Shown here: piece by piece, positions 59,205 to 61,041 of the stretch
Position numbering within the stretch: the stretch's first letter is position 1
Layout: the number at the start of each line of letters is the position of its first letter
Origin: Escherichia phage vB_EcoM_Shinka
Length of the DNA stretch: 64,000 nucleotides
Reading direction: 5' to 3' (one strand)
Sequence record: MZ502379.1
The notes under the pieces: generated by a model
The model's input: the letters and a program-made list of their open reading frames with translations, nothing else
What the model was told of the DNA's origin: nothing
Databases searched by the model: none
Program-made: the position numbers and the translations under genes

Positions 59205-59783
59205 TTAGGAATTACGGGCTGCATTAGCAACGGCATACGCGTACTGAACATTAGCGTCTTTAAACGTACCTTTAGAGGTATCTAGTTCTGCCTTAAAGCC
59301 GCCTTTAGCCATAACATCGGCAAATTCTTTACGGAAAGCCATTGCATCAAGACCTTTCCATGATGATTTATGCTTGGCAAATTCAAGACCAGCGTAGTTG
59401 ACAGCCTTAGCTAATTTATTATCAATAACCCATTTACCGGCTTTAGGCACAAACACCGGGCCTTTCTGTTTGGAGAATAGTTTTAAATTCCAGCGACGAA
59501 GGTCACCGTCAGCTTTAACAAAAGCTGCGTCCAAGTTACTAGCAACAACATCTTGAATATGGCCAAATTTAAGCCCATCAACTTCAATATTTAGATCGGT
59601 ACGCCAGCGAAGTCCTTCCCAAGCGAAGGCTTTAAAGTCGGAAGCCTTTGTAGCTAAGTACCGTTCAATAGGAGCTGTTTTAGGGTCAAAGCCGTTTCCA
59701 GATCGGTATGTCCACTCATCTTTGTTAATGCCTTTGGCCTTTACTACAGAAGCTTCGGCAATAAATTCTTGATATGTTTTCAT
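59205..59783 (-). CDS. ipIII: internal head protein, IPIII-like, with capsid targeting sequence (192 aa)
   Basis: N-terminal MKTYQEFIAE CTS with predicted prohead-protease cleavage after Glu. Confidence 0.8.
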   Translation of the reverse strand: MKTYQEFIAEASVVKAKGINKDEWTYRSGNGFDPKTAPIERYLATKASDFKAFAWEGLRWRTDLNIEVDGLKFGHIQDVVASNLDAAFVKADGDLRRWNLKLFSKQKGPVFVPKAGKWVIDNKLAKAVNYAGLEFAKHKSSWKGLDAMAFRKEFADVMAKGGFKAELDTSKGTFKDANVQYAYAVANAARNS

Positions 59784-59811
59784 GTGTTTCCTTGTTTGTT
59801 TTGATAGAGTA

Positions 59812-59841
59812 ATTATACCATATTAATACTTAAGCGTAAAC
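59812..59841 (-). promoter_or_regulatory. T4-type early promoter upstream of the IPIII-like gene
   Basis: Minus strand GTTTAC, 18 nt, TATAAT. Confidence 0.6.
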
Positions 59842-59844
59842 CGT

Positions 59845-60105
59845 TTAAGCTTTACCGCCAGAAATAATTCCGAAGTTGTTAAAATCATATCCAATATCGT
59901 CAACATCTACTTTAGGACTTGCTACAACATAAGCAATTTCACTACGTTTTGCACAGGTGTTGATTTCTTTACCATCGCCACCTAAGAAAGAATACCCATT
60001 ACGTTTTAATGAGCCAAAGTCTTCCGCATCACCAATGAAAGCTTTAACTTTAAATTTAGAACCTTTGGCATCTGCTTCAACGATAAATTCTTGATACATT
60101 TTCAT
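59845..60105 (-). CDS. small internal protein with capsid targeting sequence (86 aa)
   Basis: N-terminal MKMYQEFIVEA CTS-like. Confidence 0.65.
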   Translation of the reverse strand: MKMYQEFIVEADAKGSKFKVKAFIGDAEDFGSLKRNGYSFLGGDGKEINTCAKRSEIAYVVASPKVDVDDIGYDFNNFGIISGGKA

Positions 60106-60111
60106 TTTTCC

Positions 60112-60222
60112 TTAGTAAATTGATTTACCAAAGTATTTGTACCAAGTCGGACGTTGAGCAATTTTTTCATCTAAGCGTGCTTGACTTATCGCAATGGACG
60201 CTTCGGACGGGACATAATTTCC
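60112..60222 (-). pseudogene. denV: denV (endonuclease V, pyrimidine-dimer glycosylase) 3' remnant
   Basis: Only ...[31 protein letters not shown] matches the C-terminal about 35 aa of T4 DenV; upstream is unrelated and occupied by a promoter and an internal-protein gene. Confidence 0.7.
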
Positions 60223-60242
60223 TCCAAGTAGTTGATGAATGT

Positions 60243-60272
60243 ATAGTATCAAAACCCTTGGAGGAAGTAAAC
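60243..60272 (-). promoter_or_regulatory. T4-type early promoter lying where denV 5' sequence would be
   Basis: Minus strand GTTTAC-ttcctccaagggttttga-TACTAT. Confidence 0.5.
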
Positions 60273-60274
60273 AA

Positions 60275-60556
60275 CTATTTTTCTGAAGCGCCTGAAATAT
60301 ATTTTTCAAGACGTTGTTTCATCAGCGAGCCGTTCTTAGCGATTTCTTCCGGTTTATCGCACATACGCAACAAGGCTTCAAGCTTAACGATATCACTGGT
60401 GCGCTCAAATTTGCGAGTATCTATCTTACTAGCAAGTTCAGAAATACGTGCTAATAGACTTTCAGCTTCAACCAAAGCTGCACCTAGCTTAGTTGCAAAT
60501 GTGTCAGTAGCTTCGTTAAGAATAGATTCTGATAAAAATTCACTATATGTTTTCAT
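60275..60556 (-). CDS. small internal protein with capsid targeting sequence (about 93 aa from [10 protein letters not shown])
   Basis: CTS-like N-terminus at the second Met of the track ORF. Confidence 0.6.
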
Positions 60557-61041
60557 ATATACGCTTTCCAAGTTCCTGTTTTAAATGTTGAGATTACGCG
60601 TTTCGCGCGATTAGGTGTCTGACGATACCATTTAGATTGGGCTAGATTTACTGCCGCTTCGTCCCAACGTTTCTGTTGGAGCATACGTAAAGAGTTAGTA
60701 AATCCTGCTACGCCAGTTTCTCCCATTTGGAAGACCATATTAATCAATGCACAACGACGAACCGCATCAAGAGAATCATAAACCGGTTTTAATTTAGCAT
60801 TTCTCAGAATTCCGCGAACAGCCGCATCAACATCCTGATTAAAGAGTTTTTCAGCCTCGTCTTTGGTAATTACACCATTGCAATTACGTCCAATAGCTTT
60901 ATCTAATTCAGATTTAGCAACACTAAGTGATGGACTTTTGGTAAGCAAATGACCAATGCCAATAGTGTAATAGCCTTCTGTGTCTTTATAGATTTTAAGT
61001 CTAAGACCTTCATCTATACGTAACATTTCAAATATATTCAT
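60553..61041 (-). CDS. e: lysozyme, endolysin (162 aa)
   Basis: [33 protein letters not shown]... near-identical to T4 lysozyme. Confidence 0.97.

Follow-up and report, generated by a model that had tools for sequence, protein, structure and literature searches.

Ip1, Ip2 and Ip3, internal proteins (IPs) of T-even phages, each block a distinct GmrSD enzyme (PMC12373910). Ip1 inhibits the GmrSD of Escherichia coli CT596, Ip2 inhibits GmrSD/BrxU of ECOR21, and the target of T4 Ip3 is the two-gene GmrS1/GmrSD2 type IV system of E. coli ECOR17 (Silas et al. 2025, PMC12373910); there is no cross-protection between the Ip2 and Ip3 systems (PMC12373910). Additionally, a 2025 preprint reports that Bas37_0260, a protein with a capsid targeting sequence (CTS) encoded at the ipI locus, inhibits McrBC (bioRxiv 10.1101/2025.11.20.689424). 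Here, we analyzed the IP locus between the lysozyme gene e and vs.8 in a 64,000-nt stretch of Escherichia phage vB_EcoM_Shinka (MZ502379.1; the whole stretch is referred to as the window), which encodes IpIII and two small CTS proteins of 86 and 93 amino acids, designated IP86 and IP93.

The CTS by itself is enough for the packaging of foreign proteins (PMC3012670), and the prohead protease gp21 cleaves after the Glu of an L/I-x-E motif (PMC9026906). According to Arbiol et al. 2010 (PMC2839356), the work of Repoila et al. 1994 revealed two highly variable IP loci, and the known IP variants numbered more than 30 by 2007. These loci are flanked by T4 early-promoter/stem-loop elements, which probably mediate shuffling (Arbiol et al. 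2010, PMC2839356). Of these two loci, the e-proximal one corresponds to the e-denV-vs.8 interval, and the other is 57B-tRNA.

We found that the locus in the window is a standard example of the known variable IP locus, comprising IpIII and two catalogued, functionally orphan families. A preliminary description had proposed three packaged and injected proteins, the two small ones being candidate anti-defense factors. Our analysis confirmed that the observation is real and that its interpretation was right in kind, with the novelty overstated. The best overall explanation is probably that a variable IP locus supplies packaged, injected inhibitors.

Capsid targeting sequences and predicted maturation

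The source segment is from a Tequatrovirus (T4-like), and the 2.7 kb around the IP genes match 858 phage records, with the best matches (235Ecol030PP, vB_EcoM_G8, UFV13 and G4498) being 96-97% identical. All three open reading frames (ORFs) said to begin with a T-even CTS lie on the minus strand, and their N-termini are exactly as first quoted. ip93 (60275-60556) encodes the 93-aa protein; ip86 (59845-60105) encodes the 86-aa protein, which begins MKMYQEFIVEA; and ipIII (59205-59783) encodes the 192-aa IpIII precursor, which begins MKTYQEFIAEA. The ip93 ORF had been drawn as far as 60571. The frame is real, but position 60571 corresponds to a TTG farther upstream in the same frame; we prefer the ATG at 60556, as it is the annotated start in the related genome G8 and puts the targeting sequence at the N-terminus.

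We ran the CTS pattern ^MK.[FY].[ED]F.{2,3}E on the ATG-initiated frames of at least 40 aa in the window (n=630). Four matched, three of them being the IP genes within 1.4 kb and the fourth gene 61.1 (18521-18700). The 5' ends of the three IP genes form a 32-nt direct-repeat family (D1) on the minus strand, in which the ipIII copy (59752-59783) serves as the reference (100%) and the ip86 (60074-60105) and ip93 (60525-60556) copies are 84% and 75% identical to it.

By motif, all three CTSs contain a gp21 site: IAE10 in IpIII, IVE10 in IP86, and LSE10 plus LNE15 in IP93. Cleavage after E10 is predicted to yield mature forms of 182 aa for IpIII (20.2 kDa, pI 9.7) and 76 aa for IP86 (8.0 kDa, pI 6.4), whereas IP93 may be cut after E10 and/or E15, giving 83 aa (9.2 kDa, pI 6.3) or 78 aa (8.6 kDa, pI 8.1). 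In IP86 homologs down to 64% identity, Y4, E6, F7, I8 and E10 are invariant. Every sequence in the Ip5/IP93 alignment keeps L/I-x-E within its first 15 residues; E10 is often lost with (I/L)-x-E15 kept, or the reverse. Moreover, ip86 and ip93 sit between e and vs.8, a variable IP locus, as T4 ipII and ipIII do. We consider it very likely that IP86 and IP93 are packaged, processed and injected.

The charge and distribution of these proteins bear on whether they could be mainly structural, serving as core filler or as DNA-packing or charge-balancing proteins without a specific host target. The historical view, in which each T4 IP is present at ~300 copies per head and binds DNA at low salt (PMC9026906), would fit such a role, as would the contacts of internal-protein lysines with DNA phosphates (PMC3012670) and the fact that Ip4-10 are without a known target. 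However, acidic and basic residues are equal in number in mature IP86 and IP93 (pI ~6.3-6.4, or 8.1 if IP93 is cut at E15), whereas classical IPs have a pI of 9.0-9.7 (9.0 for T4 IpI*, 76 aa and 8.0 kDa). With a pI of ~6.3-8.1, both are near neutral, as is the McrBC inhibitor Bas37_0260 (predicted mature form 67 aa, 7.4 kDa, pI 6.5), and not like a DNA-coating polycation. IP genes are also patchy, with none at this locus in Bas37 and ~200-500 records per family versus 1402 for gene 61.1, which is the pattern of accessory arms-race genes and not of structural necessities. We therefore regard a mainly structural role as quite improbable and favor injected effectors.

Gene 61.1 (minus strand, 59 aa), which has a CTS-like N-terminus, lies outside both IP loci, immediately upstream of the primase gene 61. 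Its product reads MKTYKEFIKE/DMVAGDSGGNPENISTGTTSGAVVNKGP... and then has a tail rich in Lys/Arg. The alignment of its residues 2-38 with residues 57-93 of T4 gp23 (43% identity, E 2e-8 in a two-sequence search) spans the gp23 maturation site LTE65/A66. In the homologs of Aeromonas phage 31, RB49, a Klebsiella phage and an Acinetobacter phage, [LIV]-x-E always stands directly before the conserved core. The gene belongs to phrog_1823 and is widespread among T4-like phages. Its product resembles a free-standing copy of the N-arm and cleavage site of gp23.

IpIII and two orphan families

Over its full length, the 192-aa ORF shares 93% identity with T4 IpIII (E 1e-136) and 96% with IpIII of phage W143, and it matches phrog_5341, "internal virion protein" (E 1e-117). 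By these matches the protein, earlier called IPIII-like, is an IpIII ortholog. Its CTS, MKTYQEFIAE, is identical to that of T4 IpIII, from which it differs in being one residue shorter and in 13 substitutions. The gene order differs as well, in that ipIII of the window follows ip86 and abuts vs.8, whereas T4 ipIII is flanked by e and ipII.

Along its entire length, IP93 is 48-52% identical to Ip5 of T2, PP01, RB70, RZ and Bas37_0261, and 26 columns of the end-to-end alignment are invariant. The matches to Ip5 of T2, RB70 and PP01 cover 84 aa (E 1e-21 to 2e-25), and a profile search with IP93 retrieves the T2 and RB70 Ip5 proteins at E 1e-40 to 1e-43. IP93 belongs to phrog_3499, "internal head protein"; its exact sequence occurs on 541 contigs, and its 90%-identity cluster includes RB69ORF127c, also of 93 aa. 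On the strength of these alignments, IP93 is a divergent member of the Ip5 family, whose name was reportedly given by Repoila et al. 1994. Unlike the Ip5 genes of T2, PP01, RB70 and Bas37, ip93 adjoins e instead of lying at the 57B-tRNA locus. Moreover, relative to the Ip5 proteins, IP93 has an eight-residue C-terminal extension and offers gp21 two candidate sites, E10 and E15, of which most Ip5 proteins retain only E15. Given the ~50% identity, it is possible that IP93 differs from Ip5 in target specificity. The AlphaFold2 model of IP93 consists of three helices (H4-44, H54-66 and H69-92) with a mean predicted local distance difference test score (pLDDT) of 74. A Foldseek search of BFVD with this model gave an Ip5-like protein of VR26 as its sole significant match, which offers no functional clue.

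IP86 belongs to the RB69ORF125c/SP18gp123 family and to phrog_2667, "internal head protein". It shares 71% identity with SP18gp123, a protein annotated "similar to RB69ORF125c", and is an ordinary member of this family, other members being of equal length and 64-93% identical to it. In W143 and SP18, the gene of this family likewise lies between denV and vs.8. Comparison of IP86 with IpI, IpII, IpIII, Ip5, Ip7, Ip10 and Bas37_0260 gave no similarity beyond the CTS, and the alignment with T4 IpII covers residues 1-19 only. The family could be linked to no name in the Ip1-Ip10 series. We also considered IP86 as a distant relative of IpI, given the equal mature size and a "GDG...VxSP" likeness seen by eye, and rejected this relationship, as BLASTP of mature IP86 against IpI* gave E 4.3 and the PHROGs differ.

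When 1.84 billion proteins were searched exhaustively by HMMER with IP86 as the query, six matches were returned, namely fragments of its own family, one 99-aa distant homolog and one WG-repeat protein. The latter (P0063) is a 417-aa metagenomic WG_beta_rep (PF14903) protein, and its repeat unit shows weak, above-shuffle similarity to IP86 residues ~20-60 (phmmer E 8.5e-8 summed over 5 stretches). The IP86-family profile scored 30.2 bits on P0063, with 17.8 bits for the best single repeat, versus a maximum of 10.7 bits in 500 shuffles. The motif K-x-F-I-G-x(3)-D-x-G-x(4)-G-Y-x-F-x(4)-G-K-E-I is common to IP86 and the repeat unit. A Pfam search with IP86, PF14903 included, gave no match at E <= 1. 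These scores hint at a resemblance between IP86 residues 20-60 and one WG beta-hairpin unit, which is a lead only and silent on function. Pfam and NCBIfam hold no family for any of the three IPs.

As the preliminary description noted, neither small protein is obviously an IpI or an IpII. BLASTP likeness to IpI, IpII and IpIII extends over ~11 N-terminal residues (~11-16 for IP93, with E 0.25 against the N-terminus of T4 IpI and residues 1-11 of IpII aligned), and the PHROGs are separate: 4363 for IpI, 7857 for IpII, 2667 for IP86 and 3499 for IP93. Neither is an ordinary IpII ortholog, the alignment with IpII being N-terminal only and phrog_7857 standing against phrog_2667 and phrog_3499. The suggestion that both might be novel did not hold, as IP93 falls within the Ip5 family, the IP86 family is present in 217 phage records, and RefSeq annotates both as "internal head protein". 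T4 IpI*, T4 IpII and Bas37_0260 resemble IP86 and IP93 in delivery route (CTS and gp21 site), size class and location in a variable IP locus, and mature IP86 and IpI* are both 76 aa and 8.0 kDa, but they share no detectable similarity with IP86 or IP93 beyond the CTS. A relationship of IP86 or IP93 to the McrBC inhibitor Bas37_0260 was rejected, with no match at E <= 1e-3, and neither protein matched T2 Ip7 or SP18 Ip10. The neighboring genes of other phages do fall into these last two families, W143 hyp104 being 71% identical to Ip10 and SP18gp122 49% identical to Ip7.

The IP86 and Ip5/IP93 families are as frequent in the phage collection as IpI, IpII and IpIII. The Ip5/IP93 family occurs in 496 phage records, ~238 of them of IP93 type, and IP86 in 217, compared with 290 for IpI, 260 for IpIII and 198 for IpII.

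Proposed cassette exchange and transcription signals at the locus

The locus is polymorphic, as had been proposed, and gene order from e to vs.8 differs among T4, W143, SP18, Bas37 and G8/window. T4 has e-ipIII-ipII-denV-vs.8, W143 has e-ip93-denV-ip86-(Ip10-like)-ipIII-ipII-vs.8, and SP18 has e-denV-Ip10-(IP86-like)-(Ip7-like)-vs.8. Bas37 (KarlGJung) has e-denV-vs.8 with no ip gene, and the window and G8 have e-ip93-[denV remnant]-ip86-ipIII-vs.8.

Relative to W143, the window is without a 519-nt ipII-bearing segment between positions 59185 and 59199, and the ipIII-vs.8 spacer (59076-59204, minus strand) takes the place held by ipII in W143-type genomes; the window phage has IpIII and no IpII at the e-vs.8 locus. 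The Ip10-like gene of W143 is likewise missing from the ip86-ipIII interval. Because this junction falls in the repeated CTS/upstream segment (59752-59805), ipIII of the window carries the 61-nt upstream spacer that precedes the Ip10-like gene in W143. At the other end of the locus, homology to T4 stops at 60558, in the last codons of e, where the lysozyme ends ...TGTWKAYI versus ...TGTWDAYKNL in T4; thus, the boundary of the ip93 cassette lies inside the e coding sequence.

The denV (endonuclease V) remnant (60112-60219, minus strand) comprises the 3' end of the gene, ~36 codons including the stop, fused to the denV start region. Relative to W143, ~297 nt are deleted (blastn joins W143 locus positions 4172 and 4470), and the remaining 35 aa are 97% identical to the C-terminus of W143 DenV. 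The junction, where the denV start region meets codons N-Y-V, lies at the 7-nt microhomology AATTATG, and the ATG that was kept is out of frame and would yield a 9-residue peptide only. The window phage, like G8, should be without pyrimidine-dimer glycosylase.

We propose that cassettes may be gained and lost via recombination between the repeated CTS-coding 5' ends and the promoter-bearing spacers. This arrangement resembles the PeSL/IP promoter-stem-loop cassettes (PMC2839356), as the window likewise has cassette junctions in repeated regulatory and 5'-coding segments and a T4 early-type promoter match in a spacer. In contrast to the PeSL cassettes, recombination in the window is inferred from sequence comparison, and the denV junction is a 7-nt microhomology and not a cassette repeat.

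Two late-promoter motifs, TATAAATA, lie just upstream of e (61055-61075, minus strand; motif scan) and are identical to the T4 e upstream region. They are the likely source of late transcripts running into ip93 and beyond. The ip93 ATG overlaps the TGA stop codon of e (ATGA), an overlap whose sequence suggests translational coupling to e. A ribosome-binding site for ip86 directly follows the denV stop codon. The motif scan found no late motif directly upstream of ip86 or ipIII. Upstream of ipIII, the 61-nt spacer contains an early-type/sigma-70-like promoter match (59812-59840, minus strand), with TTTACG, a 17-nt spacer and TG-n-TATAAT, agreeing with the consensus at 10/12 positions. This consensus match is only suggestive, because promoter-like sites in the region are no more numerous than in shuffled sequence.

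Cassette junctions at the 32-nt CTS-coding repeats and the shared upstream spacer, together with the early-type match, would also be expected if the CTS on the two small ORFs were a recombination scar, that is, a shared 5' linker on cytoplasmic early proteins that never enter the head. We give this view hardly any credence. The CTS peptide, including the cleavage glutamate, is conserved in IP86 homologs that are only 64-71% identical overall, and the Ip5 relatives retain L/I-x-E although their nucleotide sequence has diverged. Moreover, the CTS alone packages foreign proteins (PMC3012670), and ip93 appears translationally coupled to e, a gene with late promoters. Packaging of both proteins thus remains the preferred reading.

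Proposed anti-restriction function

In the model that we propose, the CTS on each product would dock it to the scaffolding core during prohead assembly, and gp21 would then cut at L/I-x-E, with the cut predicted to follow E10 in IpIII and IP86, and E10, E15 or both in IP93. The mature proteins (~20, 8.0 and 8.6-9.2 kDa) would stay in the head with the DNA, be ejected into the next host and act there ahead of any phage gene expression. Their most likely action would be stoichiometric inhibition of type IV (modification-dependent) enzymes that attack glucosylated hydroxymethylcytosine (hmC) DNA.

The modification genes of the window are consistent with this substrate. It encodes a dCMP hydroxymethylase (gene 42, 24436-25170; 94% identical to T4) and alpha-gt (36049-37248; 91%). 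The position of T4 beta-gt (22958-23800, minus strand) is occupied by a gene for a 280-aa beta-glucosyl-HMC-alpha-glucosyltransferase (phrog_842, E 1e-88), and no homolog of T4 beta-gt was found in the window. With genes for hydroxymethylase, alpha-gt and the beta-alpha-glucosyltransferase, the DNA should contain glucosylated/gentiobiosylated hmC, a modification predicted to be of T2/T6 type, which is the substrate class of GmrSD.

A 206-aa ORF (23819-24439) lies between the beta-glucosyl-HMC-alpha-glucosyltransferase gene and gene 42.

All four characterized IPs (Ip1, Ip2, Ip3 and Bas37_0260) inhibit type IV enzymes, and anti-restriction is therefore the best guess for IP86 and IP93. We located the Bas37_0260 sequence in MZ501089, where the neighboring gene, bas37_0261, encodes Ip5. 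The anti-defense idea was first put forward by analogy with IpI* and GmrSD, and it seems reasonable to regard it as better founded now that Ip2, Ip3 and Bas37_0260 are also known as inhibitors of type IV restriction. By this analogy, IP86 and IP93 probably have an anti-defense function of some kind, while a role specifically as type IV restriction inhibitors is a tentative assignment, a little short of an even chance.

Several results weigh against the proposal. Ip4-10 gave no reproducible inhibition when assayed against GmrSD variants active on T-even phages (PMC12373910), and by numbering this set should include Ip5. The accessible part of the HIDEN-SEQ preprint does not name bas37_0261 (Ip5) among the conditionally essential genes (10.1101/2025.11.20.689424). 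Our literature searches found no virion proteomics or genetics for IP86 or IP93, and searches for RB69ORF125c/RB69ORF127c yielded nothing relevant. The IP86 and IP93 families have no relative among PDB sequences, and hence no structural tie to a target; Foldseek of the IP93 model against PDB gave nothing at E <= 0.001, and the AlphaFold2 model of IP86 is unusable (pLDDT 48). Additionally, ipIII is directly preceded by a single promoter-like site, which is of early and not late type.

The Ip4-10 result would also fit a reading in which IP86 and IP93 are injected but act on something other than a type IV enzyme, such as a competing phage, a target in host take-over or another defense system. The four characterized IPs share no sequence beyond the CTS, so that the class is defined by delivery route and not by activity, and the injected head proteins of T4 also include Alt, an ADP-ribosyltransferase (PMC9026906). 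On the other hand, every small CTS protein with a known target inhibits a modification-dependent restriction enzyme, and the GmrSD family is diverse, with only a small part of it tested so far. We consider such a different target unlikely and retain the anti-restriction proposal.

It is conceivable, though we would not bet on it, that IP86 and/or IP93 inhibits a defense system not yet linked to any IP, either an untried GmrSD subtype or a system of another kind. If so, the picture of one IP for one nuclease would be extended, and wild E. coli could be searched for that system with the protein as a probe. In wild E. coli, modification-dependent restriction is one of the major obstacles that T-even phages face, and knowledge of the IP set could help in predicting the host range of a phage used in therapy or as a model. 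The targets of the two orphan families would be useful to find, given an abundance comparable to that of IpI, IpII and IpIII. The locus itself adds nothing conceptually new.

Neighboring genes

Read in the direction of transcription, the minus strand carries nudE, e, the 93-aa ORF, the denV fragment, the 86-aa ORF, the 192-aa ORF and vs.8, in this order. The nudE ORF spans 61079-61534. Gene e (60553-61041) encodes a lysozyme that is 94% identical to that of T4 and matches Pfam Phage_lysozyme. No tRNAs were found in the window. An Rfam scan of 58400-61200, which included the ipIII-vs.8 spacer, gave no match, and the GC-richer spacer was thereby ruled out as a known RNA.

The vs.8 region (58488-59139, minus strand) is split relative to the T4 annotation. 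A 33-aa ORF (59038-59139) matches residues 1-33 of T4 Vs.8 in a frame other than that of the main 195-aa ORF (58488-59075), and vs.8 starts are annotated shorter in G8 and W143. The split reflects either a frameshift in the window or an over-extended T4 annotation.

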